Positions 12,476-32,994 are shown, counted from the stretch's first letter. The stretch: 60,940 nt of DNA from a bacterium (GCA_027002475.1 JALWZS010000023.1:1-60940); one strand, 5' to 3'. Notes: a model not told the origin generated them from the letters alone. Program-made: numbers and translations.

Positions 12476-13393
12476 TTAAGATTTAAGCTTATTTAGTATA
12501 TATTTTTTATAAAGTTTTAAGAACACGAAAAACAACAAAATGCTCATTAAAGTAATTGCAATTAGTTTAATAGGGACAACATAAAAAGTAGCATTAGCTA
12601 TGTTGCCATCACCAAGTTCTAAAGTAGCAGTAAACTTTCCAGCAAGTATTGGCAATTTATATTCAGCATTATTAGGCGCCCACTCAACCGCCAAATCCTT
12701 TTCACTACCCGGTAAAACATAGGACAAACTATCATTAACCAATACTTCGTTATACACACGTCCTGTTATGTCGTTTTTTACCTTAATCCTTCCCAAAGGC
12801 TTTTCAAAAATAGTTCCGTTATTTTTTAATGTTACGTTAAAAGAAACAGGTGCCGTTTCGTAAATCTTATTAGCGCTATTAAAACTAGCTACCACCAAGT
12901 CGTGTTTCAGGCTTGTCTCTCCAACAGTTAGGTAGATAATCGTTAGTAGGCGCGAATGGATAGAGGTTTTATATTCCGCTGACGCTTCATCACCAACTGG
13001 ACTTGCCTCAAAAGCGATTGCATCGTAATAACTACCAGGAATTGCGTCTTTTGGAACATCGATTAAAGCACTAACTTGTAACTCGTCGTTAGGACCTAGT
13101 GTAAAAGGACCACCAGCTAAAGTTATCCATTTACTTGTTGAGTATTCGACTTGACCAGACTCCATGACTTGTGGAGTTCCATCGGCACTAAACCTTAGGT
13201 CATAAGGCTTAACCGAAACGTTAATATCTATGGAATCATTGTTTTTTAAAATCAAGCTAATTTGCCTAGACTCACCTGGATTAAGACGGATATCATTAAA
13301 GTTTGGCGATAGTGTAAGCGCGTTAATAGGTCTCACAAAGCCAAATAGTGCAATCGCGATAACTAAAGAGTACAAACCAAACCTTTTAATCAT
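12476..13393 (-). CDS. cell-surface protein with DUF916/DUF3324-like architecture (signal peptide, two Ig-like domains, C-terminal TM and basic tail), paralog 1
   Basis: ATG at 13393 gives MIKRFGLYSLVIAIALFGFVRPINA. Motifs include WITLAGGPFTLGPNDELQVSALIDVPKDAIPGSYYDAIAFEA and LAGKFTATLEL. The C-terminal helix is LIAITLMSILLFFVFLKLYKKY. It lies immediately upstream of the giant gene. Confidence 0.7.
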   Translation of the reverse strand: MIKRFGLYSLVIAIALFGFVRPINALTLSPNFNDIRLNPGESRQISLILKNNDSIDINVSVKPYDLRFSADGTPQVMESGQVEYSTSKWITLAGGPFTLGPNDELQVSALIDVPKDAIPGSYYDAIAFEASPVGDEASAEYKTSIHSRLLTIIYLTVGETSLKHDLVVASFNSANKIYETAPVSFNVTLKNNGTIFEKPLGRIKVKNDITGRVYNEVLVNDSLSYVLPGSEKDLAVEWAPNNAEYKLPILAGKFTATLELGDGNIANATFYVVPIKLIAITLMSILLFFVFLKLYKKYILNKLKS

Positions 13394-13399
13394 AGGCAA

Positions 13400-13408
13400 A
13401 TTGTAACA
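13400..13408 (-). promoter_or_regulatory. extended -10 box TGTTACAAT, 6 nt upstream of ATG 13393 (leaderless-type geometry)
   Basis: Minus strand reads ...TGTTACAAT ttgcct ATG. There is no Shine-Dalgarno sequence in the gap. Confidence 0.45.
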
Positions 13409-13420
13409 GAAATATAACAC

Positions 13421-13876
13421 CGCATATCAATCGTCATTGCTACTTCTCCGTCATTACGAAGGAGCGAAGCGACTGAAGTAATCTCAAGGCAGTGGGATTG
13501 CTTGGCTAACACTCGCAATGACAATATAACACTCGCGATGACTATTAACCCGTCATTGCGAGCCGAATGCGTGGCAATCTATACATCGGGGAGATCGCCG
13601 CGTCGCGCTGCATGGAATGAGACTGCCGCGGTCGATCCGGCTCCCTCGCAGTGACGAGAGCGCGTCATTGCGATTCCGATGCATATCGGGAGAAGCAATC
13701 CAATCGCCGCGTCGAAAAGCTGCGCTTTCTTCCTCGCGATGACAGGAAGAATGAGATTGCCGCAGTGAATCACTGCGTGATTACTTCGCAATGACACATT
13801 GACCGTTATAGCTACCCTCCCGTCATTACGAAAGAGCGAAGCAACTGAAATAATCTATACATCGACAGCAACGCCG
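13421..13876. repeat. hairpin-repeat array R1 (GTCATTGCGAG/CTCGCAATGAC family)
   Basis: About 10 core copies in both orientations, with inner arms GGCAATCT / AGATTGCC and a CGCAGTGAATCACTGCG palindrome. Confidence 0.85.
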
Positions 13877-13906
13877 ATGGTAAAATACACATGTACTGCA
13901 TTCTCG

Positions 13907-14191
13907 ATGAAGCGAAAGGGGTATATCTACATCCTAACCAATAAGTATAATCATGTTTTGTATGTAGGGGTTACAAGCAACTTAGTAAGACGTATTAACG
14001 AACACAAATTGAGAGTAGGAAGTAAATTTACCAGTAAGTACAAGATCGATAAGCTTGTATATTATGAAACTTTTGACGATATCGAAGAAGCTATTGCTAG
14101 AGAAAAGCAAATTAAATCAGGATCCAGAGCTAGAAAGATTAAATTAGTAGAATCAATTAATCCTCAATGGAAAGAGCTAGAGCCAGTTTAA
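13907..14191 (+). CDS. small stand-alone GIY-YIG (URI-domain) nuclease family protein, 94 aa
   Basis: MKRKGYIYILTNKYNHVLYVGVTSNLVRRINEHK...YYETFDDIEEAIAREKQIK matches the GIY...YVG...R..EH...E pattern of the GIY-YIG fold. The upstream part of ORF 13799.. is repeat sequence. Confidence 0.85.
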   Translation: MKRKGYIYILTNKYNHVLYVGVTSNLVRRINEHKLRVGSKFTSKYKIDKLVYYETFDDIEEAIAREKQIKSGSRARKIKLVESINPQWKELEPV

Positions 14192-14204
14192 GAAATACAA
14201 CTAC

Positions 14205-14725
14205 AGGAAATTGCCGCAGTAAATTACTACGTGATCACTTCGCAATGACACATTGACTGCCATTGCGGGCGCAGTGGAGAAACATGGTTTCTCCCGTAAG
14301 CATGCGAAGTATGCGTCCATTGCGAGCGCTAGCGTGGCAATCTCCAATGTATAGATTGCTTCGTCGTAAATCTTTGATTTACTCCTCGCAATGACGGCTT
14401 GGTGTATTATCGTGATTTCTCGTCATTACGAAGGAGTGCAACCACTGAGGCAATCTCCTGTAAGCATACGAAGCAATATCATGTAGATAGACTGCCGCGC
14501 CTTCGGCTCGCAGTGACGGAAAGGGAAGTGCGCGAGGTTCGTCACTGCGAGCCCGCAACAAGCGGGAGAAGCAGTCTTAACTAACGAGATTACTGCGCAA
14601 TTTGCTACGGCAAATTACTCGTAATGACAAGAAAAATGCAATGCTATTTCACTTGCAGTGACGCTAAGCGTCAGATCGCCGCGCCACTTTGTGGCTCGCG
14701 GTGACGGGAAGAGTAAAACTACCGC
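14205..14725. repeat. hairpin-repeat array R2
   Basis: About 10 core copies plus the double-hairpin module GGAGAAAC-N4-GTTTCTCC-CGTAAGCATGCG..TATGCGTCC. Confidence 0.85.
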
Positions 14726-14734
14726 AGGTGCATG

Positions 14735-14762
14735 TTGACAACTGCCACACCTATTATATACT
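14735..14762 (+). promoter_or_regulatory. sigma70-like promoter for relBE (TTGACA, 16 nt, TATACT)
   Basis: TTGACA at 14735-14740 and TATACT at 14757-14762. ATG follows 11 nt later at 14774. Confidence 0.5.
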
Positions 14763-14773
14763 TTATATACACC

Positions 14774-15046
14774 ATGAAGACGACGGTAATAAACATCAAA
14801 ACAACAAACGAAGTCAAAACCCAAGCACAAGAGATAGCCAAAGAGTTAGGAATTAGCCTTAGTTCACTCATCAATGCTTACTTAAAGCAACTTACTCGCA
14901 CAAAACGAGTTGTATTTGATCTTAATCCTTACCCAAACGAACAAACAAGACAGTACTTAAATAATGTACATAATACCGATACGTCACCGACGTTTAACTC
15001 TATAGATGCAGCTAAACAATGGCTGGAAGAACAAACTAAAAAGTAA
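14774..15046 (+). CDS. relB: type II antitoxin, RelB/DinJ family (ribbon-helix-helix)
   Basis: MKTTVINIKTTNEVKTQAQEIAKELGISLSSLINAYLKQL is a typical RHH antitoxin N-terminus. It lies 20 nt upstream of the RelE-like gene. Confidence 0.8.
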   Translation: MKTTVINIKTTNEVKTQAQEIAKELGISLSSLINAYLKQLTRTKRVVFDLNPYPNEQTRQYLNNVHNTDTSPTFNSIDAAKQWLEEQTKK

Positions 15047-15066
15047 CCGCAACTTTAAACAATCAA

Positions 15067-15345
15067 ATGAGTACGCATATCCGATTTAGCAAAAAGTTCG
15101 TGAAGGGTTTCAAGAAACTCAACCGCAAAACACAAAAACGTTTTTACGATAGGCTTAAAATCTTTGAAGAAAACCCTTATCACCCAACGCTTCGAAACCA
15201 CCAGCTAGCTGGAGAGTACTCCCAGTTTAGAAGCATCAACATAACTGGCGATATTCGTGCAATATATCACGTTGTCAGGCAAGAGGAGAAAGTGCAAGTC
15301 ATACAGTTTGATTTAATCGGTAGCCACAGTGAACTGTACGAATGA
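15067..15345 (+). CDS. relE: type II toxin, RelE/StbE-type mRNA interferase family
   Basis: 92 aa with ...NPYHPTLRNHQLAGEYSQFRSINITGDIRAIYHV...IGSHSELY, the RelE/ParE-superfamily pattern. Confidence 0.8.
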   Translation: MSTHIRFSKKFVKGFKKLNRKTQKRFYDRLKIFEENPYHPTLRNHQLAGEYSQFRSINITGDIRAIYHVVRQEEKVQVIQFDLIGSHSELYE

Positions 15346-15349
15346 CAAC

Positions 15350-15670
15350 ACGGGAAGTTAGATTGCTTCGTTGAATCACTCAAAAGAGTTTCTCGTCACT
15401 GCGACTTGGTGCCAACCAACACGGCAGTCTATCTATATGAGATTGCTTCGCCTTCGTCTCGCAATGACGATCAACGTGTCATTACGAAGGAGCGAAGCGA
15501 CTGAAGTAATCTCAAGGCAGTGGGATTGCTTCGCTGCCGCTCGCAATGACGCGCTCTCGTCACTGCGAGGGAGCCGGAACGACCGTGGCAGTCTAGAGCG
15601 ATGGATTGCTCCGCGTACTTGAGATTGCCGCAGTCATTGCACTCCTTCGCAATGACAAAACAAATCAAGC
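15350..15670. repeat. hairpin-repeat array R3
   Basis: About 7 core copies, including the compact hairpin GTCATTGC-actccttc-GCAATGAC. Confidence 0.85.
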
Positions 15671-15674
15671 GACC

Positions 15675-16664: not shown

Positions 16665-16673
16665 GCAACAAGT

Positions 16674-16702
16674 ATTGTGCCAGCAAATCAGATGTAGGTC
16701 AA
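16674..16702 (-). promoter_or_regulatory. promoter candidate TTGACC, 17 nt, CACAAT, 9 nt upstream of ATG 16664
   Basis: Read on the minus strand. There is no SD sequence in the gap. Confidence 0.4.
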
Positions 16703-16734
16703 CAGGTATGAAATCGGTTGAGACTGTGACGTAC

Positions 16735-17140
16735 GCTTGTAGCAGATTGCTTCGCCTTCGGCTCGCAATGGACGCATACTGCGTATGCTTACAGGAGAAA
16801 CGCAGTTTCTCCATCATGCCATGAGCGATGACGAGGAGACGAAGGCGTTCAATTTGTCATCGCGAGTCTTTTCATGTCATTACGAGACCGCCATACGCGG
16901 GAGAAGTAATCTCATCGATTGAGACTGCGTCGTCACTACGTTCCTCGCAGTGACGGGAAAGCAGCGGAGAAGTGCAACTTCTCCTATAAGCACGCGAAGC
17001 GCGCGTCCATTGCGAGAAGGAAATCAAAGATTTTCGACGAAGCAATCTCTACTGCTATTAGATCGCCACGTCGCTACGTTCCTCGCGATGACAGTAGTAG
17101 CGTCGTCATTGCGAGCGCTAGCGTGGCAATCCCATCTGAT
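16735..17140. repeat. hairpin-repeat array R4
   Basis: About 9-10 core copies, the module CGTCACTACGTTCCTCGCAGTGACG, and two GGAGAA..TTCTCC double-hairpin modules. Confidence 0.85.
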
Positions 17141-17145
17141 ACCCC

Positions 17146-17176
17146 TCATAGAAAAGGCCCCCTTGCGGGGGCCTTT
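17146..17176 (-). terminator. rho-independent terminator after the 387-aa secreted protein gene
   Basis: Perfect 10-bp GC-rich stem AAAGGCCCCC-ttgc-GGGGGCCTTT (17153-17176). On the minus strand it is followed by TTTTCTAT. Confidence 0.7.
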
Positions 17177-17315
17177 CCCAAAAGTGCTATCTCTGACAGT
17201 CATACACGCTTATTATCGCCTGTATGCCGTGGTCCAGGATCAATCACGCCTTATTATTTGGGCCTAACTGTCCTACAACACTCCGTAGCTTTACGCGTAG
17301 GAGTGAACGCTTACA

Positions 17316-18479
17316 TTAGAATGTAGCGGTTGCACGGAATGTCAGTGTGTTTGTATAGTCGCTAGCAGCAGCGGTTGACCGACCTGCAACTGCTCGTGCC
17401 TCGATCTGTGCACTTCCTGAAACTACTGGACCACTTGTTGTGTAAATGTTCGCAGTAGTGCCAAATGAAGTTTGTACAGGAGACGCATCAGTTGCTGCAG
17501 CACTATCGTATGAAGCATCAGGAGTCATGGTAGTTCCACTAGCATCTTCACTTTCAGATACTGCAACTATTCCCCACGATCCATCCACGCTATTAGTGCT
17601 TAATGTTGCAAGGTCAGAGCTGACAAATGGTATGTTATCACTAGCTGCTGTACTGCTAAGACCATTGGAGTCATCAGTTATAACCTGAACAACTGTACCG
17701 TTAGCGGCGTTGCTGTCGAGGTCTAACCAGATTTCGGATACTCCACTCGTACTACCTGTAGTAACAGTATCGTATGTTAACTCACCTAGGTCTAATGTAT
17801 ATGGCGCGTCACTATCACCACCACCATCAGCAATATCTAAGTCGAATGTGATGTATGTATCAACTGAAGCGGTAACAGTTACCTGATCACTATCCATGAT
17901 CGGCACATCTACTGCAAATGCATCATCACCAAATGTTCCTGACAGGTTTATCTCTTGCGAACCTGCAGTCCCTGGGTTGGTTAAACGATCTGTACCACCT
18001 GATGCCGTACTCCCTACTTCAATAGTGATAGTAGCAGCCGCGGATGATGCAGTGTAAGAACTACAAGCCTCAAAGGTCAAGGTTCCTGCAGCATCGGCAA
18101 CAGTAACTGCAATATTATCAGCGCCCGCCGTACAGGTAGGCGAAGCCCCGACATCTACAATCGTCCGTTCAGTGCCGTCATTAAAATCGATGTCAGCAAC
18201 AGCCAAATTAGTACCATCTAAGGTAAAACCTGAGCTGTCCTCGTTAAAATCAACAATGATTGTTTCACCTGCAGCAAAAGTTTCTGATGCTGACAGTTGA
18301 AAGGTAATTGTATGACCAGCGGCCGTAGAAATTGCATGACGAGTAAGCTCATCCTTAGCACTCTGAACTGTAGTAGCGTAAACCTTCTGAGATCCAGAAA
18401 GCCCTACAAACAGTTGGAATGCCATTAGTGCAATACCTACACTTGCGATAGCACGACTTTTTCGTACTTTTTTGAGCAT
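17316..18479 (-). CDS. secreted Thr/Ser/Ala/Asp-rich beta protein with a WxL-like C-terminus (387 aa)
   Basis: ATG at 18479 is preceded by AAGGAGGTGA. The signal peptide is MLKKVRKSRAIASVGIALMAFQLFVGLSGSQKVYA. Internal motif VDTYITFDLD...YTLDLGELTYD. It ends SDYTNTLTFRATATF. Confidence 0.75.
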   Translation of the reverse strand: MLKKVRKSRAIASVGIALMAFQLFVGLSGSQKVYATTVQSAKDELTRHAISTAAGHTITFQLSASETFAAGETIIVDFNEDSSGFTLDGTNLAVADIDFNDGTERTIVDVGASPTCTAGADNIAVTVADAAGTLTFEACSSYTASSAAATITIEVGSTASGGTDRLTNPGTAGSQEINLSGTFGDDAFAVDVPIMDSDQVTVTASVDTYITFDLDIADGGGDSDAPYTLDLGELTYDTVTTGSTSGVSEIWLDLDSNAANGTVVQVITDDSNGLSSTAASDNIPFVSSDLATLSTNSVDGSWGIVAVSESEDASGTTMTPDASYDSAAATDASPVQTSFGTTANIYTTSGPVVSGSAQIEARAVAGRSTAAASDYTNTLTFRATATF

Positions 18480-18544
18480 ATTTTGCTCACCTCCTTTCTC
18501 GTTTTTAATGTACGTAAACAAAACTCATATTATTCAATGGTATA

Positions 18545-18835
18545 TAAGATTGCGTCGCTGGCGCTCGCAATGACAGAAAAAAAGCTCGTAATGGACGTAC
18601 GCTCCGCGTACTTAAGATTGCCGCAGTCATTGCACTCCTTCGCAATGACAAAAACCCGTCACTGCGAGGAACGTAGTGACGCGGCAGTCTGACGCCTAGC
18701 GTCATTGCGAGGTAATCACGCAGTGATTTAACGAAGCAATCTAATTTGGTAGAGATTGCCACGCCTTCGGCTCGCAATGACGACAATCCGTCACAGAGAT
18801 TACTTCTCCCGCCCATGGTGGGATCGTAATGGCGA
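18545..18835. repeat. hairpin-repeat array R5
   Basis: About 10 core copies, including CGTCACTGCGAGGAACGTAGTGACG. Confidence 0.85.
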
Positions 18836-19139
18836 AGCCTAGCCATAGCAGAAGTAAACATAACCCTTAAAGGCTCTAAAGAAGTTTGGGACAGTTGTGA
18901 AACTTCTTTTTTCATAAGTACTACTCTATCCTCTACAAAATCATGGTCGATGTCAATACCAAACGTGCCAGAAAACGACACGATACTATCGGGCACGCAC
19001 CCTCAAGACTATGGGGCTAGGGGCTTTAGGGCGGTTAAGTTTACGAGTAGCGCGGCACTAGTTTAGATTGATAGCATCGAACAAAACAGGACAGTACAAA
19101 TAAACCACAAAGCACAAAATCCAAACAGCACAAACAAAC

Positions 19140-19628
19140 CCGTCACCGCGAAGCAGTCTCGCCTATTGCTAGATTGCCACGCCACTTCGTGGCTCGCAAT
19201 GACGAAACCACCACCGCCACAAGGCGTCACCTGGTGACTCGCCGCGGAGACTCCGACGCATAGCGTCACTGCGATCCCGCCTTGGGCGGGAGCAGCAGTC
19301 TCCTGAGTACGGAGATTGCTTCGCGTGATTGAGATTGCCGCAGTCGTTGCACTCCTTCGCAATGACGCGAGGAATCGCGATAATACACCAAGTCGTCATT
19401 GCGAGCGCTAGCGAAGCAATCCCACTACCCTGAGATTACTTCAGTCGCTTCGCTCCTTCGTAATGACGGGAGAAGTATAGCAATGGACGCAGGCAAAGCC
19501 TGCTTACAGGAGACACTGCGTTTCTCCACCTCCCCCAACCGTCATCGCGAGCCACAACGTGGTGCGGCGATCTACAACAACGAGATTGCCACGGAATTTA
19601 TATGATAAATTCCTCGCAATGACAAGGG
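19140..19628. repeat. hairpin-repeat array R6
   Basis: About 10 core copies plus one GGAGACAC..GTTTCTCC module. It lies directly downstream of the ABC permease gene. Confidence 0.85.
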
Positions 19629-19632
19629 ATTC

Positions 19633-20883
19633 TCATTCGTATCGTAGTGCGTCGAGGGGGTCAATTTTGGATGCTCGCCTTGCTGGATAAAACCCAGTTA
19701 TCGCCCCCATCAAGAACGACGAGATTACAACCAACACAATAAACCACAAAGGAGCAGAGAATAAATCTACAGCCTCTCCTCCAGCCCTTTGCGCAATCGT
19801 GTTGATAATATAGTTAATCGTTTCCGTACTTATAAACCCTAACGCCAACCCCGACATGCCCCCAAGAAATCCAATCAGTATAGAATCAAATAAAAACAAA
19901 CTCCATATATCCTTACTGGTAGCACCAATAGCTTTCATAATTCCCACCTCACGAGTACGTTCAAGAAGCGAAATTGTTAAGGTGTTAAACATTCCAACTG
20001 CAGAAATGAAAAGCGCAATAATACCAACGGCAGTAAACATAATTTGCGTAAAACCAAAGATTTGATTTAACTGATCTAAAGTTTCTGTCAGAGCCGAAAC
20101 CGAGTACCCCCTGCTTTGTAATTCTTTCTTTAATGGATCTACGCTATCCTGGTCCGCCACCTGCACCTTAAGCAGTGACGGCTCCAGAGCATCAATCCCA
20201 GACACTCGCCCCAAAGGCATATACATATAGTTACTGCCCGCATCAACAATTCCAACAATCGTAAATTGTTGAGTAAAATCAATCTTTCTACTTAATGTCC
20301 CACCAGTCTCCCCCTCACCAAGTAACTGATCTTGCTTTTGTTGTTCTTTTAGAATCAGCTCTTTTGGCACAATTAAAGTTACGCCCACGTTTTTACCCAA
20401 CGCCTCTTCTGGAGTCAGGTTAAACAATTTAAGAAGATGGGTTGTTACTACAATTGCGTACTGATCGTCCTGCGTATAAAGCTCTCCTAAGGTTGGAGTG
20501 ACACCAGCCAAGCCGAAAAAGTCCGGCTCCACCAAATAAGCAACAGTCTGCCCAACTAAATCTCCATAATCTAGTGTTGCAGCCATGTTCTTTTGCGGCA
20601 ATACTTTCACTACGCTAGAATTCGTTTCTGGTAGCGAAGTAAAGTAGTCATCGCTAAGAGAAAGCAAATCCTTAACACCGGCGCCAACAGTAACATCTAA
20701 GGTAAGTAGCGACTGCGACGTAACGATTTTATTTACAACAAGTTCCTGAATACCAAACGCCAACGCAATTAAAAAGTAAACAATACTTATACCAACCCCA
20801 ACACCAAGCACCGTTAAAAACACCCGCAGTTTGCGGTTTTTAAATCGCTGTAGATTTAACTTAATTACTGATCTTAATTTCAT
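19633..20883 (-). CDS. MacB/FtsX-type ABC transporter permease (4 TM, large extracytoplasmic loop)
   Basis: The N-terminal TM is followed by a ~230-aa loop and a C-terminal FtsX-like bundle (...MKAIGATSKDIWSLFLFDSILIGFLGG...FYPARRASKIDPLDALRYE). There is an ATGA overlap with the ATPase gene. Confidence 0.85.
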   Translation of the reverse strand: MKLRSVIKLNLQRFKNRKLRVFLTVLGVGVGISIVYFLIALAFGIQELVVNKIVTSQSLLTLDVTVGAGVKDLLSLSDDYFTSLPETNSSVVKVLPQKNMAATLDYGDLVGQTVAYLVEPDFFGLAGVTPTLGELYTQDDQYAIVVTTHLLKLFNLTPEEALGKNVGVTLIVPKELILKEQQKQDQLLGEGETGGTLSRKIDFTQQFTIVGIVDAGSNYMYMPLGRVSGIDALEPSLLKVQVADQDSVDPLKKELQSRGYSVSALTETLDQLNQIFGFTQIMFTAVGIIALFISAVGMFNTLTISLLERTREVGIMKAIGATSKDIWSLFLFDSILIGFLGGMSGLALGFISTETINYIINTIAQRAGGEAVDLFSAPLWFIVLVVISSFLMGAITGFYPARRASKIDPLDALRYE

Positions 20884-22818: not shown

Positions 22819-25800
22819 TTAAATATCCTTCAACCAACTAAATGTCTCTTCTAGAGAGCCAAATATCAACTCAAATATACTTACCTTTTTCCCAGGTGTT
22901 AGCATAACATTGGGCTCAGAAATGGTCTCGTTGCCGCTTGGATCCACCGATATTACTACAAACTGATAAGCGGTAGATGTCTTTAAGTCATTGAGGATAA
23001 CGATATGGTCTTTTCCATAATCAGTATCTATCTCTGATGCAAATTCGTAGTCTTTACCGCCTACGGTTTCTGTATATTTTACTTGTGCCGTTGACTCTTC
23101 GTTTGTATTCCAGCTAATAATGGCTTGTACGGTTGATTGATCGTTGTTTAAGTTGGCATGTGTTTCAATTAGTGAGATCACTGGACCGACATGGTCATCT
23201 GCCGTTTCAAACGAGTACTCATCGGAATCATAAGTGTTGTTATTTTGGTCAGTCATTTTAATAACTACAGAGTATGTTGTATTTGGAGACAAATCGGTAA
23301 GCGCAATTGTATGCTTATTGCCAAATCCCTGTCCAAGTTTTGTTCCAAGGTCTCCTGTTCTAGTGTTTTTGTATTGAACGGCAATTGTTGAAAGTATATT
23401 GGTTTCAAAGTTAAGTTGAGCCGATGTTGGAGTAATATTAGCAATATCAAGATTAACGATACTCGGCGTTGATCTAGTTGTAAATGAATACTCATCAGAA
23501 CTCAACAACGTTCCGTCGGCGGACTGCCCCTTAACTATAAAGTAATATGTGCCACCAGTTGCAAGGTTATTAATCTCTATTTGATGCGTTAACCCTACAA
23601 AGGCATCTGTCAAGATGTTGTCGTATACACCTGTTTGTGTTCCATACTCAATCTGACTATCAGTCGGGATAGAAGTTTGCCAGGCAATACTTGCGCTATT
23701 AAACGTTAGGTTCGCTACTCGCACGTTAGAAAGACCGGGCATAGATGTAGTTCTAAAGGTAGATATTGGTGAAATGATGTAGTCGTTTTGAGCATCTTGG
23801 CTTTTTACCTGGAATTCGTATGTAGTATTTGCGGCCAAACCTGCCAACTTTACTAAGTGATCGTTGGTAAATGTAGCTCCACCACCTGCAACTAAGGGTT
23901 TAGCATTCGAACCTTCAACTCTATAAACGACTGTTGAGGTAGATGGCGTGTTGGTTGACCAAATAATATCTGCACTAACCGCAGTTATATTTTGCACCAC
24001 CGGAGCGCCCGACGAGATAACTGGTGGGGTTTCGCCACCGGTTCCGCCATCTGGAAGCATTTCTTCTTTTACATCTTCAGGCTGAGTGATAAATGTATCA
24101 TCTGCAGTTTGCCCCATGTTCCCAGCCGAATCTAGTGCGTAAATCTTGAAATGATACGTGGTTGCAGGACTTAAGTTATGCAGTGAAATTGTATGCTCGG
24201 TTAAGAAAGTGTCTAGGTTTCCGCTTGTGTCTCCTCTATCGTAATCAGTGCTAGTGCCATATTCAATAAGCCCTCTGGCTGGTTCTGATGTAGTAAAGGT
24301 TACGTCGATACCTGTAGGGGTAACGTTAGACAGTGCAATATTACTTATCTCAGGAGCTGTTAAATCCTTATCTGTACCAGGCTCACCCGCAAGCGTTGTA
24401 AATTCATATCCTTGCGATGTTGTAGTATTCCCCGACGCATCACTTGATATTACTCGGTAGAAGTAGTGCGTTTCTGGCTCTAGTCCTGTTAGTGTAACCG
24501 AATGTCCAACAACATAATCAGACGTTGTTGTAGTCTCATTGCCATATGAATCAGTTAAACCATACTCGACCTTAGAGTTTGCACTTTCATCTGTTGACCA
24601 AACAATCCCTGCAGAGCTCACTCCAGCAATCGCATCAACGTTTGAAATTGTTGGTGCGATTGTATCCGCTCCTGTTGTGAAGTTTTGTGTATTATCGTCA
24701 ATAGACTCCGCCTTATTATCAGTGGCATCGTACGAGATAACTTTAAAGTAATATGTATTGGCAGGCTCAAGGTCTGTTAACGTCACCGTGTGTGAGTACT
24801 CCATTGTTGTTACACCAACCTGCTGCGTATAAACGCCTGGTGTTGTCGAGTATGCTACAAGTGCGTTTGCCAATTTATCGGTATCCCATGAGATTACCGC
24901 AGAGTTAAGGTCTACACCATCTACACTTACGTTACTTATCACAGGTGCGCTTGGACTGCTACCACCGCTTCCACTACCCGGAGTTACTCCTGAGTCCCAC
25001 TCAATAGAAGAACCTTGTTGGACACCAATGTTTTGATTGTAATTTGACACATTACCATCAAGATCGCGTGCAACAACACGATAAAAGTATTCGGTATTAA
25101 CATCAAGACCTGTATCAACATAAAAGTTTTCTGCAATATCTGTAATTGTTGCTTCAAGCGTGTACGTGTCAGTACTTGGGTCAGGACCTTCGGTTGACAT
25201 ATACAAATCGTATGCAGCAAATCCTGGTGCTGGTTCTGTTATCTTTTGCCAAGACACAAAGACTTTATAGTCGTTACCGTAAACATAGGAAATATCCGTA
25301 GTTACCAGATCTTCTGGAACTTGCGGAGTAGATGAGCTTATCTGAGCACTTTCGTTTCCATAGATATCTCTAAACTGTATATAAACAGTCTCAATGCCAT
25401 TTGAATCCGCCTCCATCACCCAGTCTTTTGTTGCAGCAAATGCAATCCACTGACCAGAGTCACTATTGGTCCCATCAAATGACAAATCTGCATTATTTGA
25501 GATCTTCATTTGCATTGCCGAATTATCGTCTGCAGCTATAGTTAGTCTATCTAGTCGAGAATCAACACCAAGTAGCAAATTTTCAGGAGCTTTTGTATCA
25601 AGTACTAAAGTTTTGTCATCATACCCAACTTGATTGGCAGCATTACCATCAACAGACACTATTCGTACCTTTGCGTCAGATTTGTAAAAGTCGGTCAGAT
25701 CATCTTTTACATTCCACGTGACACTATACCCAGAACCCGTACTTAGCGTTCCCAAGTCATCACTGCCATCAATTCCATTTAAGGGCATTAACCATGTGGC

Positions 25801-28800
25801 AGTGCTTGCACTATGACTTGTAGGTCTAGTTTGATTCGCACCCCGTGATATACCCGTCAAAGTGTTGCCTGTACGAGAAGAGTAGGTTATCATTTCTTTA
25901 TCAATCATTATTGTTCCCCCACCAGTAGGAAATTGATCTACTCCAGTTCCGCTTAGAGTAATATCGCTAGTAGAGACAGAGTCAGGGATATCAGAACTAA
26001 TAGCCGCCCCAACATCGATAAAGAAATAATTAGTTAGAGTTGATTCTTCGGCATCGCTGGTGTTATAGACCATTTCGACAACTCCATTAACGCTTTGTTC
26101 TGGCACATTGGTAATTGTCACGTCAGGTGCGGTATTAATAACGTACTGTACGCGGACCTCATCAAGCTGAGGTGTATTACCGCCAACAGATGTCATAAAC
26201 ATCTTGTATTGGAACCACTGGTCATCGGTTGCATCTAGCTGAGCTGAATTGATACCTGTACAAGTTACTGTTGTTCCATTTTTCGAACAACCTGGTGCAC
26301 TATCATCATAGTAATCGCTACTACTAGTTGGCCCTAAGAATGGTCCCCATGCTCCAGGCGATCCTCCGTTATCTGGCGCTGTCCTAATCTGAAACTGTAT
26401 GTTAGTGCCTGCAGGTAAAGTAGCATCTTCGTCCCAAATGATTGCAGAGACAACGTTTGTCGGATCCTCAGTATTAAAGGCAGAACCAGTTAACTCACCA
26501 TTAAAGCTGTAATGATCATAAACTATATAAACCGCCTGTAATCGTGGGGTTTCAAGGCTAGATGAAGTTGTTAGAGTTGCTTGATATTGAATGTATCTAT
26601 CTCCGTCTGTCACACAGCTATTTGAACTAATATCACTAGATTGAGTCACGTTACTACACGTTGACCAATCTGGAGCCCCCACCATATTGGCGTCATTAGA
26701 GGTACGCACCTTCATTGTTATATTAGTAGAGGCGCTATTTATTTCGTCCCATGAGATTTGACCAAAGCCAATATTCTCTGTTGTGTCTAGCACTGAGGAT
26801 GTGAATGTGCCAGATGCGTAGTAGTTTGCCCTAAAGGCGTACCTCCAAAAGGTATTCGTTTTACCACCATGAGTGGAGTACAAAAACAATCCAGCATTAC
26901 CAGGAAAAATCATGTCTGAACCAGATTTAGGAGTTCCTGGTGAGTCGGTAAGATTTGTCCACTCGTTTCCAAGTACATAGTTAAATTTCCAAAAGGTTCG
27001 CTCGTTATTCCCTGGATAAATATAAAGATAATCGTCTAGGCCTGGATACATTAAGACCGCCCCTTCGCCTACAGGTGTATTTTCTGGAGTAGTAGCGACT
27101 ACATTCCAACTGTCTGTTGCTACTTGATACTGTAAAACCCTGTTTGTGTAATTACCTTGCAGGGCATAAAAGGTTCCACCCCCAACATAGGCTAAATCGC
27201 CACCTCTGTCTATTGGATAATTAACTGAAGAGATAGTATTATCCCAAGCCGAACAAACACTTAACGGGCTACTAGAAATTTGACAACGCTTAAATCCTGT
27301 TGTCCCATTCCCCATAGTTACGTACAAATAGCCGGTAGAAGAATCAAACGCTAAAGCGCTACCATGCCCAACCTCACCAGGAGAAGTGTAGTTTGTCCAT
27401 GTATCAGTTGGAATGTCATATCGCCAAAAGCCGCTACTTATACCAGCACCTACGTTTCCTTGTGTAGCATAAATCCCTGTTGGATCGACTTGATCGTCAT
27501 ATGCCAAATCGGCACCGTAATACACGTTCCCAGGTGCGTCTGCCATTTTGGTCCATGCCCCAAAGCCTCCGTTTGCATCGATGCTAAATCGATAAAAGTC
27601 TGGTGTGTTACCTCCTCGCAATGCGTAAATATACCCATTGCCGTCATCAACCTCGACCAAAGCTCCACCTAAATCCACGTTGACATTAGGGGGCAAAAAC
27701 GCAATAGTTGACCACTTATCTGTAGATTCAGAGTAGAGCCAAAACCTTGTAGAGTATTCATTGCTTGCAGCACCTGCTTTAGATAACGTATAAACTTGTG
27801 AGTTATAAAAAATCGCACCTGCCCCATCACGTACAAGATCAGGTGTATTTCCTTTTGCTACCCACGAATCCGTAGATATTGTGTACTCATAGAAACCTTG
27901 ACTACCAGACTGATTGCTATCACCAGGGATATAGTACAACTTGTCAGAGTTATCTGTTCGGACTAACGCAGAACCACTATACGGCGGTTCTGGAAGATTG
28001 CTAGGTTGACCGCCATCACTCGCATCATTCCATTTATTTGTTACGCGGTTAAACACCCAAAAGTTTGTGCTCGATATTCCACCTTGAGTTACATAGAGCA
28101 AGTTACCACTTCCTGGGGACTCGATATCGGCACCAATACCAAGTACGGCAGGCGGCGGAGCAGAAGAGCTTAGGTCTGTCCATGTCCCTGTAGAAACATC
28201 GAACTTTTCGAAATAGTTTGTGTTCCCTCCAACGACGACAAATATCTCAGTACCTACGCCTGGGTAATCCATATCTCCACCATTTCTAGTTCCCCTAGGA
28301 GGACTAGGCGCCGCGCTCCATGTGTCCGTTGCAATATCGTACTTCCAAAACGTCGTGTCAGTTCCCCGTAAAACATATAAAACGTTATCAGGGTCGTAGT
28401 AGGTCATGCTGGCACCAGATCGCAGTAACTCTGGTGGAGAGGTAAGTTGGGTCCATTGATTATCTGTTATTGAATACTTGTAAAAAAGGTCTGAAGAGTC
28501 ACCAAGTATTACGTATATTTCATCACCAACTTTAACCATCTTTGAGTCTGCATTCAACTCAAACGGTTGCATTGATGGTTCGCTCCAGGTGTCGATGTCT
28601 TGCGGGTTTTGGTTGGCTAGCTGCACTTCGCCACCAGTCCCCTCACCCATTACACGCGTATGTGGAGGTGTTTCTGGACCGAAATCTCCAGCTTCAAAAT
28701 CTGCCCTTTCGGTTTGTGTAAGAGTTGCAGTGTCAGGCGCTAACACTAAAGAAGTACCTGCAGAGTCGTCAATATTGGTTTGAGACGAATACCTATTCCA

Positions 28801-29070
28801 AGTCCCTGGGTCGTTTTGGTCGTCTGTTGCACTGCGGTACGCATTTGGGTCAGCTCCACCACTCCAATTTGTTTGAATAAAAGTGAACGTTAGAGCGTTG
28901 ATGAGTGATATGCCAATTAGCAAGACCGTTAATACAGAACCACCTGCTAGAAAGAGCTTTGCTTTTTTCCCAAACTTCGGGAGCTTTTTCAAGTTAAATG
29001 GAGTCGGGGTTGTAGATGGAGTTATTTCGCCAGGTAAAAGCTTTTTTCCGTTATTCATAAACATCTTCAT
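22819..29070 (-). CDS. giant membrane-anchored/secreted surface protein (2083 aa): N-terminal TM or signal anchor, Kelch-like beta-propeller blades, two jelly-roll-like modules, about 8-9 fibronectin-III domains
   Basis: An uninterrupted 6.25-kb ORF with N-terminal helix LFLAGGSVLTVLLIGISLINAL. There are many W/Y-containing ~50-aa blades (...FWKYDIATDTWS..., ...FWRYDIPTDTWTNY...). Fn3 units with Y(Y/F)(F/Y)(K/R)V strands lie at about 22900-25330. Confidence 0.9.
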   Translation of the reverse strand: MKMFMNNGKKLLPGEITPSTTPTPFNLKKLPKFGKKAKLFLAGGSVLTVLLIGISLINALTFTFIQTNWSGGADPNAYRSATDDQNDPGTWNRYSSQTNIDDSAGTSLVLAPDTATLTQTERADFEAGDFGPETPPHTRVMGEGTGGEVQLANQNPQDIDTWSEPSMQPFELNADSKMVKVGDEIYVILGDSSDLFYKYSITDNQWTQLTSPPELLRSGASMTYYDPDNVLYVLRGTDTTFWKYDIATDTWSAAPSPPRGTRNGGDMDYPGVGTEIFVVVGGNTNYFEKFDVSTGTWTDLSSSAPPPAVLGIGADIESPGSGNLLYVTQGGISSTNFWVFNRVTNKWNDASDGGQPSNLPEPPYSGSALVRTDNSDKLYYIPGDSNQSGSQGFYEYTISTDSWVAKGNTPDLVRDGAGAIFYNSQVYTLSKAGAASNEYSTRFWLYSESTDKWSTIAFLPPNVNVDLGGALVEVDDGNGYIYALRGGNTPDFYRFSIDANGGFGAWTKMADAPGNVYYGADLAYDDQVDPTGIYATQGNVGAGISSGFWRYDIPTDTWTNYTSPGEVGHGSALAFDSSTGYLYVTMGNGTTGFKRCQISSSPLSVCSAWDNTISSVNYPIDRGGDLAYVGGGTFYALQGNYTNRVLQYQVATDSWNVVATTPENTPVGEGAVLMYPGLDDYLYIYPGNNERTFWKFNYVLGNEWTNLTDSPGTPKSGSDMIFPGNAGLFLYSTHGGKTNTFWRYAFRANYYASGTFTSSVLDTTENIGFGQISWDEINSASTNITMKVRTSNDANMVGAPDWSTCSNVTQSSDISSNSCVTDGDRYIQYQATLTTSSSLETPRLQAVYIVYDHYSFNGELTGSAFNTEDPTNVVSAIIWDEDATLPAGTNIQFQIRTAPDNGGSPGAWGPFLGPTSSSDYYDDSAPGCSKNGTTVTCTGINSAQLDATDDQWFQYKMFMTSVGGNTPQLDEVRVQYVINTAPDVTITNVPEQSVNGVVEMVYNTSDAEESTLTNYFFIDVGAAISSDIPDSVSTSDITLSGTGVDQFPTGGGTIMIDKEMITYSSRTGNTLTGISRGANQTRPTSHSASTATWLMPLNGIDGSDDLGTLSTGSGYSVTWNVKDDLTDFYKSDAKVRIVSVDGNAANQVGYDDKTLVLDTKAPENLLLGVDSRLDRLTIAADDNSAMQMKISNNADLSFDGTNSDSGQWIAFAATKDWVMEADSNGIETVYIQFRDIYGNESAQISSSTPQVPEDLVTTDISYVYGNDYKVFVSWQKITEPAPGFAAYDLYMSTEGPDPSTDTYTLEATITDIAENFYVDTGLDVNTEYFYRVVARDLDGNVSNYNQNIGVQQGSSIEWDSGVTPGSGSGGSSPSAPVISNVSVDGVDLNSAVISWDTDKLANALVAYSTTPGVYTQQVGVTTMEYSHTVTLTDLEPANTYYFKVISYDATDNKAESIDDNTQNFTTGADTIAPTISNVDAIAGVSSAGIVWSTDESANSKVEYGLTDSYGNETTTTSDYVVGHSVTLTGLEPETHYFYRVISSDASGNTTTSQGYEFTTLAGEPGTDKDLTAPEISNIALSNVTPTGIDVTFTTSEPARGLIEYGTSTDYDRGDTSGNLDTFLTEHTISLHNLSPATTYHFKIYALDSAGNMGQTADDTFITQPEDVKEEMLPDGGTGGETPPVISSGAPVVQNITAVSADIIWSTNTPSTSTVVYRVEGSNAKPLVAGGGATFTNDHLVKLAGLAANTTYEFQVKSQDAQNDYIISPISTFRTTSMPGLSNVRVANLTFNSASIAWQTSIPTDSQIEYGTQTGVYDNILTDAFVGLTHQIEINNLATGGTYYFIVKGQSADGTLLSSDEYSFTTRSTPSIVNLDIANITPTSAQLNFETNILSTIAVQYKNTRTGDLGTKLGQGFGNKHTIALTDLSPNTTYSVVIKMTDQNNNTYDSDEYSFETADDHVGPVISLIETHANLNNDQSTVQAIISWNTNEESTAQVKYTETVGGKDYEFASEIDTDYGKDHIVILNDLKTSTAYQFVVISVDPSGNETISEPNVMLTPGKKVSIFELIFGSLEETFSWLKDI

Positions 29071-29104
29071 TTAACACACCACTTAAATGTAGTACTTATC
29101 ATTT

Positions 29105-29133: not shown

Positions 29134-29269
29134 GGATTAATGGTGTTTTAAGTCAAAAATAGATGGCGCTATAGAGCCTAAAAGTGACACACAAAAGAAT
29201 CGTCTCAGGAAAAACGCATACATCAACAGAATACGCGCGTGTAACAGGGAATTGAGGGTGCAACATACA

Positions 29270-29828
29270 CGATGCGGCGATCCCATCGATTGAGACTGCC
29301 ACGTTGGTTAATACCAACTCGCAGTGACAGAGAACTCAATACCACCGCGAATGTAAAAGTCAAAGCCCAAGAAACCAAACCATAAACAGAACAAACAAAT
29401 TAAACTTTTTAATTACAAAACTAGCGCTTAAGACATGAATCGCATCTTAGGTGTGTTTTTCTACCGACCAGACCTGTCACTGCGAGGAACGTAGTGACGA
29501 AGCAGTCCCAAACGATAGATTACTTCGCTATCGCTCGTAATGGACGCATACTTTGTATGCTTACAGGAGAAACGTAGTTTCTCCACCAACCACTCATCAT
29601 CGTGAGCCACAAAGTGACGCGGCAGTCTGACAGTTCGTCATTACGAAGGAATGAAATGACTGAAGTAATCCCAAACGATGGAGATTGCCACGCCTTCGGC
29701 TCGCAATGCCAGGAAAACCGAGACCGCTCATAATGACAAATCGGTCGATGGAGACTGCCACGAAATTTACTTGATAAATTCCGAGCAATGACGCGGGAAA
29801 TCGAAAATCCTCGTAATGGCGGGGAATC
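29270..29828. repeat. hairpin-repeat array R7
   Basis: About 9 core copies plus the double-hairpin module. It contains the left copy of the 105-nt inverted repeat. Confidence 0.85.
29382..29486 (+). repeat. left copy of a 105-nt inverted repeat (partner 36975-37079)
   Basis: 103/105 identical to the reverse complement of 36975-37079 by manual alignment. Weaker similarity extends to about 29355-29542. Confidence 0.85.
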
Positions 29829-29830
29829 GC

Positions 29831-30811: not shown

Positions 30812-30829
30812 TTCTATTTAAGACTTAAT

Positions 30830-31921
30830 TTAAAATACCCCATAAATCGTGTACGTAATCGTGTGGGTATATACACCTGCGCTTTGTGCCTTACCCACCT
30901 CTATTGCATAAACTACATTGGTTTGTTCTCCGCTTGTTACAGGACCAGGGTTATACGCAACTTCATAAGCGGTTGTATCAAAAGCCGCAAATGTGTCATC
31001 AGAAACAAACCGATTTACATTACCAGTTTTTAGCACTTCATCAGACGTGTGATAACCATAAGCCGAGCGAAGGATAGTAGTTGAGGGCCACGCACTAGGG
31101 GAAGCGTTGGTACCACTAACCGAGTCTATTTGATCTGACGAACTTGCCATAGCACTTTCTTGACGTACTGATACCTGATATCCAGAAACCGCATTAGTCG
31201 TAACCGTAATAGAGTTGGCTGCTTCCTGACGCGTATTAAACGGCAACTCCCCAAAAGAAACGCTTGATGACGTGGTCGTAACATCAGTTGTAATCCCCTC
31301 TAATGAAGAGCCACTAGAAATACCACCAATACTGGCTGTAATGCTCGGGCTAACTGTAGCAGCGGTTGCTTCAGGACCATATGGGCTTTCGGTAAAATCA
31401 CCATGCATCGCCTTAACTTTTATCTTATATGTAGTGTCGGGAGCTAAACCTGTTATGTACTCCCCAGAAGAACCGCCCCAATTTGCATAGGTTTGATAGT
31501 CCTCGGTGCCAAGGGTGTCGCCGATCGTGTTATCGCTTTGCACATACCGCGTGGTAGCCCAATTGTCGTCTGTTATTGCAATGGCGAAAGTGGTGTCGCT
31601 CGGGTTATTACTTACATTAATTGTGAAGTGCAGTTTGTTGTACCAGCTATCAGAGTTAACAAACGTTGGAGCCGATGGAACATTTGCTTGAATTGGGTAT
31701 ATGTCACCAGCGTTAAGATCGTAATTGGACGAAGAACCAACACCTTCATCGCCTTCTCCTACAACACCATATAAGGAGTTGTTTGTAGAGTCACTAGTTC
31801 CGCTAGCTCCCCCTAGTTTGTACCCTTTAAGCTGGTAATTACTACTAGCAGGAAATATAAAAAGTGACAAGAATGTTAGTACGAATAAAGACCGCATATG
31901 TTTACGCCAAGAGTTAACCAT
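30830..31921 (-). CDS. secreted protein with an Fn3 domain and a WxL-like C-terminal domain (363 aa)
   Basis: Signal peptide MRSLFVLTFLSLFIFPASS; the start could be 31921 or 31897. The Fn3 region is PSAPTF...GLAPDTTYKIKVKAMHG. Internal motifs are VSFGELPFNT and VSGYQVSVRQ. It ends AGVYTHTITYTIYGVF. Confidence 0.75.
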   Translation of the reverse strand: MVNSWRKHMRSLFVLTFLSLFIFPASSNYQLKGYKLGGASGTSDSTNNSLYGVVGEGDEGVGSSSNYDLNAGDIYPIQANVPSAPTFVNSDSWYNKLHFTINVSNNPSDTTFAIAITDDNWATTRYVQSDNTIGDTLGTEDYQTYANWGGSSGEYITGLAPDTTYKIKVKAMHGDFTESPYGPEATAATVSPSITASIGGISSGSSLEGITTDVTTTSSSVSFGELPFNTRQEAANSITVTTNAVSGYQVSVRQESAMASSSDQIDSVSGTNASPSAWPSTTILRSAYGYHTSDEVLKTGNVNRFVSDDTFAAFDTTAYEVAYNPGPVTSGEQTNVVYAIEVGKAQSAGVYTHTITYTIYGVF

Positions 31922-32094
31922 ATATGTATATTACAAGAACCACTAAAAAATCTAAAGCGAAGCAATAAAGTTTAAAAGACACACCACACCTAAGCTTTCA
32001 TAAATACACCTAGCATTAAGCCAAATTCACAGCTACTGTGCCCTAGATAGGTAATGCATTTCTACCTACTCTAGTATAAAATAAATGTAGCCCA

Positions 32095-32994
32095 ATGAGA
32101 TTAAAATACTTATTACTATTGCCCTTACTGTTACTTTTCATGTTTCAAGCGAATGTGTTCGCGCAAGAGTCCAAACAAACCGTTTTGGTATATCCAACAT
32201 CGCTCACCATAAACAGTATTAGCAACGACTCGATAGACAATGTCATAAGATACACAAACAAATTTGATATCCCAGTAAGTATCGACCTTACAATTGAGCC
32301 CATCACCGAGCCCCTAGGCAAAAACCGCGATATCATCAAAGAATGGATTAGCCTATCTGAGTCCAACTTTACGGTTGAAGCAAACTCTTTTAAAGACATA
32401 ACTATAACAATTAACGTACCCCAAAAAGCGGAAGTAGGACCGTATTTTTTTAAGGTGTTAGCAGATATCAGGGCTATTAATCCACCATCATCTAGAAATA
32501 CAATTTACATTGGCAATAAATTAACAACAAGCATCACGCTTCGCATCACAGGCAAACTCCTTGAGGACGCAAGCATCGAAAACATTACGGTCCCAAGCCT
32601 ATTTGGAGCCAAAGACAAGATTGATCTTACAATTATTAATCGAAGCAACGTTACCATAGTCCCCAATGGAGTGGTAACCCTACGCAACACACTAAACAAA
32701 CTCGATATACCTATAAAAGTCTCAGCCGAAACAATCGCCCCACAAAGTAGTAGCACTATTAGTGTTAAACTCCCCGAAGAATTGTTGTGGGGAAAGTATA
32801 ATGTCGATGTTCAGTTGCAGTACGGCTTAACACACAAATCTATGGACGCATCGGCTTCGTTTTACAATCTACCAATTGGTTCAATCGCCATTTCAATGCT
32901 ATCTGGCTCAATACTATTTACTATTCTGTATTTTGCAATTAGGCACCATGACAGAGTCAAACGAGCCTTATACGACTTATCACATGAAAACTAA
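32095..32994 (+). CDS. cell-surface protein with DUF916/DUF3324-like architecture, paralog 3
   Basis: Signal peptide MRLKYLLLLPLLLLFMFQANVFA. Motifs include WISLSESNFTVEANSFKDITITINVPQKAEVGPYFFKVLA and LWGKYNVDVQLQYG. The C-terminal helix is IAISMLSGSILFTILYFAI, followed by RHHDR. Confidence 0.7.
   Translation: MRLKYLLLLPLLLLFMFQANVFAQESKQTVLVYPTSLTINSISNDSIDNVIRYTNKFDIPVSIDLTIEPITEPLGKNRDIIKEWISLSESNFTVEANSFKDITITINVPQKAEVGPYFFKVLADIRAINPPSSRNTIYIGNKLTTSITLRITGKLLEDASIENITVPSLFGAKDKIDLTIINRSNVTIVPNGVVTLRNTLNKLDIPIKVSAETIAPQSSSTISVKLPEELLWGKYNVDVQLQYGLTHKSMDASASFYNLPIGSIAISMLSGSILFTILYFAIRHHDRVKRALYDLSHEN

Follow-up and report, generated by a model that had tools for sequence, protein, structure and literature searches.

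Three paralogous membrane proteins of a WWE3-like genome are probable pilus chaperones and distant relatives of Firmicutes WxLIP

The stretch of 60,940 nucleotides analyzed here (GCA_027002475.1, JALWZS010000023.1:1-60940), referred to as the window, belongs to a WWE3-like candidate-phyla-radiation (CPR) genome. It carries three paralogous genes, designated C1, C2, and C3, that probably code for the chaperones of a pilus system of the Pam type, and two genes, p387 and p363, whose products are predicted to be pilins. The minus-strand gene order is p363, p326, a Kelch/FN3 giant, an ATP-binding cassette (ABC) gene, FtsX, p387, C2, C1, and an LVIVD-repeat giant; C3 lies divergently on the plus strand, followed by genes for a dockerin protein and a cohesin-family transmembrane protein. 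The paralogs and the predicted pilins are as follows (lengths in amino acids, aa).

12476..13393, minus strand: C1, chaperone-like paralog, 305 aa; signal peptide, two Ig-like domains, and a C-terminal transmembrane helix
15675..16664, minus strand: C2, chaperone-like paralog, 329 aa; same architecture; the paralog nearest to the family consensus
17316..18479, minus strand: p387, predicted Pam-type pilin (PamA/B-like), 387 aa; N-terminal beta-sandwich, linker, and C-terminal pilin domain
30830..31921, minus strand: p363, predicted pilin, 363 aa; signal peptide, disordered S-S-N-Y repeats, FN3 domain, and C-terminal Pam pilin domain (aa 217-363)
32095..32994, plus strand: C3, chaperone-like paralog, 299 aa; the most diverged paralog and the first gene of a C3-dockerin-cohesin unit

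The original prediction, made from the DNA sequence, described three genes sharing one architecture, and this is borne out by the open reading frames (ORFs), by BLASTP, by an independent family profile, and by a structural model of C2. Each paralog starts at an internal ATG within a longer mechanical ORF, and public gene calls of 329/328 aa are concordant with such a start. Pairwise BLASTP relates C1 to C2 with an E value of 2e-26 (30% over 278 aa), C1 to C3 at 4e-10, and C2 to C3 at 1e-5. A profile built from 32 public relatives, with the window sequences excluded, picks out exactly these three genes, each at full length, from the 130 ORFs of ≥60 aa in the window (E values of 4e-115 for C2, 4.5e-54 for C1, and 2.1e-34 for C3). 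All three have a hydrophobic, signal-like N-terminal helix and a C-terminal transmembrane helix with a basic tail, and the motifs that were quoted as common to them (WI.L/F, I.VP..A.PG, and GK[FY].A) are present in their alignment. The AlphaFold2 model of C2, made with a 35-sequence alignment, has a mean predicted local distance difference test (pLDDT) score of 92.3 and places two beta-sandwich domains between helices at aa 5-30 and 291-328; in domain 1, a loop modeled with lower confidence (aa 146-160) leads into a strand whose hydrophobic residues alternate (aa 161-171). The family is large, with 23,619 clusters at 50% identity at an E value of ≤1e-3 and 4,895 at ≤1e-30. Sorting C1, C2, and C3 into conserved chaperone subfamilies by best match failed because C2 is the closest to everything. 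As first reported, there is no sign of LPXTG-like motifs in the ORFs of at least 90 aa in a nonoverlapping set with starts below 40 kb; the C3 ORF falls outside this set through its overlap with the long dockerin ORF, and no such motif was seen on reading the C3 translation.

These paralogs are true distant relatives of the Firmicutes WxLIP proteins, at both the profile and the fold level. Both domains of the solved Enterococcus faecium WxLIP (EfmWxLIP1; 9i25_C and 9i1y_A) are covered by a family-profile match with an E value of 6e-9, and an hhalign comparison of the family with four plasmid-borne Firmicutes proteins annotated as DUF916 and DUF3324 domain-containing gives 99.2% and an E value of 6.5e-20 over 254 columns. 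A Foldseek search of the PDB with the C2 model ranks WxLIP (9i1y/9i25) first among the top 50 matches, with an E value of 5e-12. The WxLIP architecture of a signal peptide, a PGBD/DUF916 Ig-like domain, an HBD/DUF3324 Ig-like domain, and a C-terminal transmembrane helix is matched by all three. PF06030 (WxLIP_PGBD) is detected at an E value of <0.01 in 27 of 35 family members (best 2.4e-9), and several close orthologs of the paralogs are already tagged PF06030 in public data, including a C2 ortholog that is 83% identical (GCA_054010915.1, locus L085). The proposed likeness to DUF916/DUF3324 proteins is therefore sound as profile and fold homology and does not extend to Pfam membership: the window paralogs are below the PF06030 cutoff, and PF11797 (DUF3324) has no match at an E value of ≤1 in C1 to C3 and none in the family scan, although the profile-level alignments to WxLIP still span the DUF3324 domain. 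The WxLIP motif NQIDKxxxYFDLK (PMC10599100) is also absent, and the aligned CPR segment reads VSPaL.e...PGe.

After WxLIP, the C2 model matches the chaperones of chaperone-usher systems, with CfaA, CsuC, PapD, Caf1M, DraB, and YadV found at E values of 1e-7 to 6e-10. The TM-scores to these chaperones, normalized to target length, are 0.45-0.57, as compared with 0.31 for RbmA. No usher was matched in any scanned gene of the locus.

The neighboring proteins p387 and p363 had been read as WxL-like, but family comparisons indicate instead that both are Pam-type pilins. The Pam pili of Candidatus Mycosynbacter amalyticus comprise PamA/B/E/T pilins, PamC and PamD chaperones, and a PamR tether (bioRxiv 10.64898/2026.03.03.709456, which cites the PDB entries 25PZ and 25QA for PamA/PamB). 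By hhalign, the p387 family aligns with pilins of Saccharimonadia scoring above the NF058581 cutoff (99.7%; E value of 1.8e-25; 309 columns), the p363 family aligns with curated Pam pilins (98.0%; E value of 2.4e-13), and the p387 family aligns with the C-terminal domain of the p363 family (99.5%). Relatives of p363 match CPR_pilus_PamT in 24 of 35 cases (best 4e-13) and Pam_pilin_C in 21 of 35 (best 9e-11). In the AlphaFold2 model of p363 (pLDDT of 80.5), a disordered segment (aa 17-73) precedes an FN3 domain, which is followed by a C-terminal beta domain; the model's top match in the PDB is to the pilus subunit CsuE. Homologs of p387 adjoin chaperone genes in many loci, and the pilins share a conserved aromatic C terminus (..YIATPxF). 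The link between p387 and p363 is made through family profiles only: p387 has no direct match in Pfam or NCBIfam, including NF058581, it is not reached by an iterated pilin-domain hidden Markov model (HMM), and a direct BLASTP of p387 against p363 is nonsignificant (E value of 0.068, confined to the C-terminal strand).

Membership of p387 and p363 in the WxL family was rejected on the results of Pfam, two hhalign runs, and a PDB profile search. The WxL model PF13731 has no match in either protein, nor, at an E value of ≤10, in 98 pilin C-terminal domains. Two WxL alignments of rising diversity, compared with the pilin domain by hhalign, align at the last strand only (YTTTxxWxL with YxxxLxYIATP) with probabilities of ≤3.5%, and the PDB profile search for a WxL identity of the neighbors returned nothing. 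A targeted HMM test of WxL against the pilin domain gave weak colinear scores of ≤13.8 bits, with reversed controls of ≤3.3 bits. By the definition of Hassan et al., a WxL cluster has at least one WxLIP and at least two WxL proteins within four genes, and the window locus has no neighboring PF13731 proteins. We note that in conjugative plasmids of Bacillus (pXO1 of B. anthracis at 77.9-79.7 kb, locus L087, and a B. mycoides plasmid, locus L094), genes for a WxL protein and for a WxLIP follow shortly after mating-pair-formation genes of the CpaF/VirB11 type. These WxL proteins end in ..YESKLTYSIVTGP, with Y replacing W, which is near a Pam pilin ending in ..YESTIVYIATPVF.

The segment of p363 directly after the signal peptide (aa 26-70, AlphaFold2 pLDDT of <50) contains SSNYQL and SSNYDL copies. 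Two or three copies of an S-[ST]-N-[FY]-x-hydrophobic motif are found at this place in p363-type pilins, including the first-position pilins of loci L003-L070 in the survey described below, and these repeats could be N-terminal donor strands.

Colocalization of homologs of the paralogs with these partner genes holds across the Patescibacteria. A survey with the chaperone alignment against one genome per species gave 80 loci, nearly all of which bear Patescibacteria names (WWE3, Saccharibacteria, Paceibacterota, Kaiser-, Adler-, Falkow-, Nomura-, Sung-, and Doudnabacteria, and Microsaccharimonas). Of these 80, 74 also hold a gene of the pilin family, and in 65 of those 74 the nearest chaperone-pilin pair is no more than 100 bp apart. 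Two or three chaperone paralogs per locus are the norm, and the usual order is an ~445-aa pilin or pilin-ended giant, two chaperones, an ~384-aa p387-like pilin, a chaperone, and a small protein, followed farther on by a dockerin and then a cohesin/transmembrane protein. The Saccharimonadia locus L051 has the order chaperone (294 aa), pilin, pilin, chaperone (327 aa), and a PamR-like gene; the NF058581 scores of its two pilins are 168 and 162 bits (cutoff of 55), and its PamR-like protein matches the PamR model with an E value of 7e-57. This gene order and these scores tie the chaperone family to the published Pam operon. Five loci (L015, L040, L050, L061, and L064) are from metagenome-assembled genomes titled "uncultured Gammaproteobacteria bacterium" that carry the CPR-type chaperone-pilin operon, and these labels are probably wrong.

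The published PamC and PamD are FimC/PapD-like proteins of two domains that keep a C-terminal transmembrane helix, unlike Gram-negative chaperones, and are encoded among the pilin genes (bioRxiv 10.64898/2026.03.03.709456). NCBIfam holds Pam models, with none for the chaperones. We note that Supplementary Table S1 of bioRxiv 10.64898/2026.03.03.709456 lists pamC as QHN42421.1 (119 kDa), whereas the other pam genes are QHN4327x; this entry may be a table error, the accession being out of series and the protein too large for a PapD-like chaperone.

Given their paralogy and architecture, their homology to WxLIP, their fold likeness to chaperone-usher chaperones, the homology of their neighbors to Pam pilins, and the conserved synteny, we consider it likely that C1, C2, and C3 serve a divergent, WWE3-lineage Pam donor-strand pilus system as PamC/PamD-type chaperones anchored in the membrane. 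From this we infer chaperone activity, a pairing of paralogs with subunits, and a filament in the WWE3 organism. All components would be exported by Sec, and the pilins p387 and p363 would emerge with an incomplete Ig-like C-terminal domain. The chaperone, held by its C-terminal helix at the outer face of the cytoplasmic membrane, would donate a beta-strand (donor-strand complementation) and pass the subunit to the growing fiber, where the strand of the next subunit would displace that of the chaperone (donor-strand exchange). Several paralogs would be present because each serves a different subunit class, and neither an usher nor an ATPase would take part in assembly. The aromatic pilin C terminus, together with the loop and alternating-hydrophobic strand modeled in C2, is consistent with chaperone-usher mechanics. 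WxLIP is reported to complete the beta-sandwich of its WxL partner by adding a strand (PMC10599100), which also fits the proposed mechanism.

Several points weigh against this assignment. PapD_N and PapD_C (PF00345 and PF02753) have no match in the paralogs or in the family scan, and the likeness to chaperones is one of fold only; tandem Ig folds match widely, and RbmA, CEP192, and ciliary proteins are also among the Foldseek matches of C2. All three paralogs score below the PF06030 gathering cutoff of 27.3 bits (C2 at 25.5, C1 at 19.9, and C3 at 17.7). On NF058581 (CPR_Pam_pilin_C), p363 matches the full model with 23.3 bits, which is below the cutoff of 55. PamR (NF058578) has no match among the window proteins scanned (C1 to C3, p387, p363, p326, and the dockerin and cohesin-family proteins). 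The link to PamC and PamD of M. amalyticus (WP_260763277.1 and WP_260763284.1) runs via a separate Saccharimonadia locus, and the chaperone activity of those proteins is itself only AlphaFold predicted (bioRxiv 10.64898/2026.03.03.709456).

The other features of the locus lie around and between the chaperone and pilin genes, as listed here.

2392..12261, minus strand: LVIVD-repeat beta-propeller giant (3230/3289 aa); PF08309, E value of 7e-96; directly downstream of C1; association only
13421..15674, plus strand: insertion of 2.2 kb between C2 and C1; GIY-YIG nuclease, RelB/YafQ toxin-antitoxin pair, and palindromic repeats
19633..22817, minus strand: MacB-type ABC ATPase (645 aa) and FtsX-like permease; flanked by the Kelch giant and p387; Pfam matches to ABC_tran, MacB_PCD, and FtsX
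22819..29070, minus strand: Kelch/FN3 giant with an N-terminal anchor (Pfam); association only
32876..33946, plus strand: dockerin protein, secreted, with Ig repeats and a C-terminal dockerin (aa ~307-350); Big_6, Big_13, and Dockerin_1
33983..36658, plus strand: cohesin-family protein; N-terminal cohesin-like domain, Ig domain, transmembrane helix at ~aa 459-477, and a long Pro/Thr/Gln-rich tail

The neighborhood was correctly described from the outset, with C1 directly upstream of the 3230/3289-aa protein, C2 downstream of the 387-aa protein, and C3 divergent from the 363-aa protein and upstream of the dockerin and cohesin-family transmembrane proteins. It had been interpreted as three independent anchor-plus-cargo modules, but these are instead parts of one conserved operon (pilin-chaperone-chaperone-pilin-chaperone...dockerin...cohesin). 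The WWE3 relatives L001 and L085 keep the order Kelch-ABC-FtsX-p387-C2-(GIY-YIG)-C1-giant; L085 also has a GIY-YIG gene between C2 and C1, and in L001 both chaperone genes are adjacent. The insertion in the window carries a GIY-YIG nuclease gene (PF01541, E value of 1.5e-17) and a RelB antitoxin/YafQ-ParE toxin pair (13799-15345, plus strand). From this synteny and the 2.2-kb insertion it follows that the three modules are fragments of a single pilus locus that has been rearranged, partly inverted, and interrupted by repeats, the GIY-YIG gene, and the toxin-antitoxin pair. The palindromic repeats are 35-75 nt long with the core CTCGCAATGAC / GTCATTGCGAG, which has 38 matches with at most one mismatch against 0.62 expected; all are in intergenic spacers of the pilus locus (13420-15675, 16665-17316, 18521-19633, 29300-29710, and 36850-37120). 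The mechanical ORFs at 16919..17326 (plus strand) and at 18505..18996 and 19063..19362 (both minus strand) appear to be mere repeat translations because they are located in these repeat-filled spacers.

The position of the LVIVD giant is kept in L001 and L085, as is that of the Kelch/FN3 giant upstream of ABC-FtsX-p387. The placement of the ABC/FtsX pair inside the pilus array is seen only in these two WWE3 relatives; the ABC ATPase has ~400 aa of C-terminal sequence without assignment. The anchor-plus-cargo logic had been proposed as a means of displaying very large adhesins. The giants in the window were rejected as pilin-domain cargo, since hmmsearch with filters off finds no pilin domain in the LVIVD giant or the Kelch/FN3 giant, nor in p326 or the dockerin and cohesin proteins; having no detectable pilin or WxL domain, the window giants offer no evidence of being cargo. 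The proposal fares better elsewhere in the CPR, where ~33 other loci code for proteins of 1,000-2,400 aa that end (~160 residues) in a pilin domain, with E values of about 1e-50 to 1e-60, and that lie directly upstream of a chaperone gene. Giants of this kind, of about 870-2,400 aa and mostly with E values of 1e-49 to 1e-60, are present in L002, L013, L021, L023, L024, L026, L027, L029, L034, L036-L039, L042, and L044-L048, and also in L053, L055, L056, L060, L065, L067, L069, L071, L072, and L075. As candidate adhesins of the pilus tip, incorporated into the pilus itself, they parallel the "large WxL proteins" of Firmicutes.

The dockerin protein, which likely starts near 32984, scores 29.2 bits on Dockerin_1 (PF00404), above the cutoff of 22.9. 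The cohesin-family protein has BLAST E values down to 2e-54 against locus neighbors in other CPR; the window protein itself is below the Pfam Cohesin cutoff, which is passed by seven of nine homologs. Both are conserved downstream of the last chaperone in other loci (e.g., L064, L075, and L080), with dockerin homologs present in 28 of the 80 loci and the cohesin/transmembrane family in 33. The pair sits in the downstream position held elsewhere by PamR, and one idea is that the dockerin protein forms a cap at the base of the pilus and binds to the membrane cohesin, replacing PamR. We note that the mature N terminus of the dockerin protein, VEQVTITAWV, is alternating-hydrophobic and strand-like. 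After its transmembrane helix and a coiled-coil-like stretch, the cohesin-family protein has a Pro/Thr/Gln/Ala-rich low-complexity tail of ~330 residues (aa ~560-891) with a (PQ)n run, which is presumably cytoplasmic.

Other functions for the paralogs can be envisaged. The robust two-domain homology to WxLIP and the large secreted neighbor beside each paralog would suit true WxL-type display, in which the paralogs are WxLIP scaffolds that hold secreted proteins, giants included, noncovalently on the cell wall, and no filament is formed. We regard this as unlikely, as there is no WxL domain in the neighbors or in the 98 pilin C-terminal domains, the hhalign comparison of WxL with the Pam C-terminal domain is nonsignificant, and the giants have no partner-type domain of any kind; moreover, the partners are homologous to the pilins that form filaments in M. 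amalyticus (bioRxiv 10.64898/2026.03.03.709456).

Alternatively, the paralogs could be PamR-like tethers or terminators at the pilus base rather than chaperones. PamR has two Ig/FnIII domains and a C-terminal transmembrane helix (bioRxiv 10.64898/2026.03.03.709456), which is the same gross architecture; RbmA is among the C2 fold matches (E value of 2e-9), and no other PamR homolog was found among the window proteins scanned. The NCBIfam PamR model, however, matches none of the three paralogs and none of 35 relatives, and in L051 the PamR-like protein is encoded by a separate gene that the family profile misses, while two family members flank the pilins. The higher TM-scores to chaperones than to RbmA, and the presence of two or three copies per operon, which suits chaperones better than a single terminator, also make this role quite improbable. 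Weak matches to many Ig-like Pfam families (CARDB, NPCBM_assoc, and fn3_5) and to the PACE-CTERM "S-layer" model are what might be expected of generic Ig-fold surface or S-layer-like proteins that cluster in a "surface protein island" but have no assembly pathway in common. The close and ordered linkage to pilin genes in many CPR classes and a WxLIP homology that covers the full length of two domains, not single Ig domains, render this explanation very hard to sustain. We thus favor a role for C1 to C3 as chaperones of a Pam-type pilus.

The original interpretation is partly supported overall, and the WxLIP homology was correctly sensed. The homology between WxLIP and the Pam chaperones is the most useful new point here; it is unmentioned in the WxL literature searched or in the Pam preprint (bioRxiv 10.64898/2026.03.03.709456), which makes no mention of WxL, DUF916, or DUF3324. 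A broader and distinctly tentative proposal, which we think possible although doubtful, is that a single ancient assembly system of monoderm cells, built on a membrane-anchored chaperone and strand complementation, has two branches, the Firmicutes WxL/WxLIP surface clusters and the Pam pili. The homology of WxLIP to the pilus chaperones is shown here, and the WxL domain would be a diverged incomplete beta-sandwich of the pilin type, as hinted at by the shared C-terminal strand motif and the weak colinear scores; pilin-ended giant adhesins would occur in most CPR classes, and a dockerin-membrane cohesin tether would replace PamR.

CPR bacteria live attached to host cells, and the means of contact is a central question for which the Pam pilus is the first structurally defined lineage-specific CPR fiber. 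The chaperone-pilin operon extends beyond the lineages stressed in the preprint to WWE3, Paceibacteria-type groups, Doudnabacteria, and Falkowbacteria, often with giant adhesin-like subunits and with a conserved dockerin/cohesin module. The WxLIP homology offers a mechanistic model, chaperone-type strand complementation, for the poorly understood WxL clusters that enterococci, listeriae, and lactobacilli use in virulence and adhesion. It also makes testable how donor-strand pili without an usher arose in the evolution of monoderm cells.

Among known systems, Firmicutes WxLIP is homologous over both domains, shares the architecture, and is the best PDB match by sequence and by fold. The partners differ, being predicted Pam pilins in the window and WxL-domain proteins in Firmicutes, and the window paralogs are without NQIDKxxxYFDLK, below the PF06030 cutoff, and without a PF11797 match. 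Several Firmicutes clusters carry a small LPXTG protein, whereas none was found among the window ORFs checked below 40 kb. The Gram-negative chaperones (PapD, FimC, Caf1M, CfaA, and CsuC) resemble the paralogs in their two tandem Ig-like domains and fold matches, and in chaperone-usher systems the genes likewise adjoin those for subunits bearing a conserved C-terminal strand. Those chaperones are soluble, in contrast to the membrane-anchored window paralogs, with which they share no sequence-level similarity, and the CPR system has neither usher nor outer membrane. As in cellulosome-type cohesin-dockerin systems, the window has side-by-side genes for a secreted protein with a dockerin and for a membrane protein of the cohesin family, a pairing kept in other loci, although it lacks enzymes and a scaffoldin and its cohesin is below Pfam significance.

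The closest comparison is with the Pam system itself, which shares the two-domain PapD-like proteins with a C-terminal transmembrane helix, interleaved with pilin genes, the lack of an usher, a sortase, and a secretion ATPase, and the restriction to CPR. The window is WWE3, whereas the preprint stresses Saccharimonadia and Microgenomatia; it has three chaperone paralogs where Pam has two; its pilins score below the NCBIfam cutoffs, and one carries an FN3 N-terminal domain and S-S-N-Y repeats; and PamR was not found among the window proteins scanned. The window operon is also split and partly inverted, an ABC/FtsX pair and two beta-propeller giants are embedded in it, and dockerin and membrane cohesin proteins are conserved members of the window-type locus. 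The initial view that such a system had not been characterized outside Firmicutes is outdated because the CPR Pam pilus was described in 2026 (bioRxiv 10.64898/2026.03.03.709456) and NCBIfam Pam models exist. The kind is thus already known, and the window locus is a divergent variant of it.

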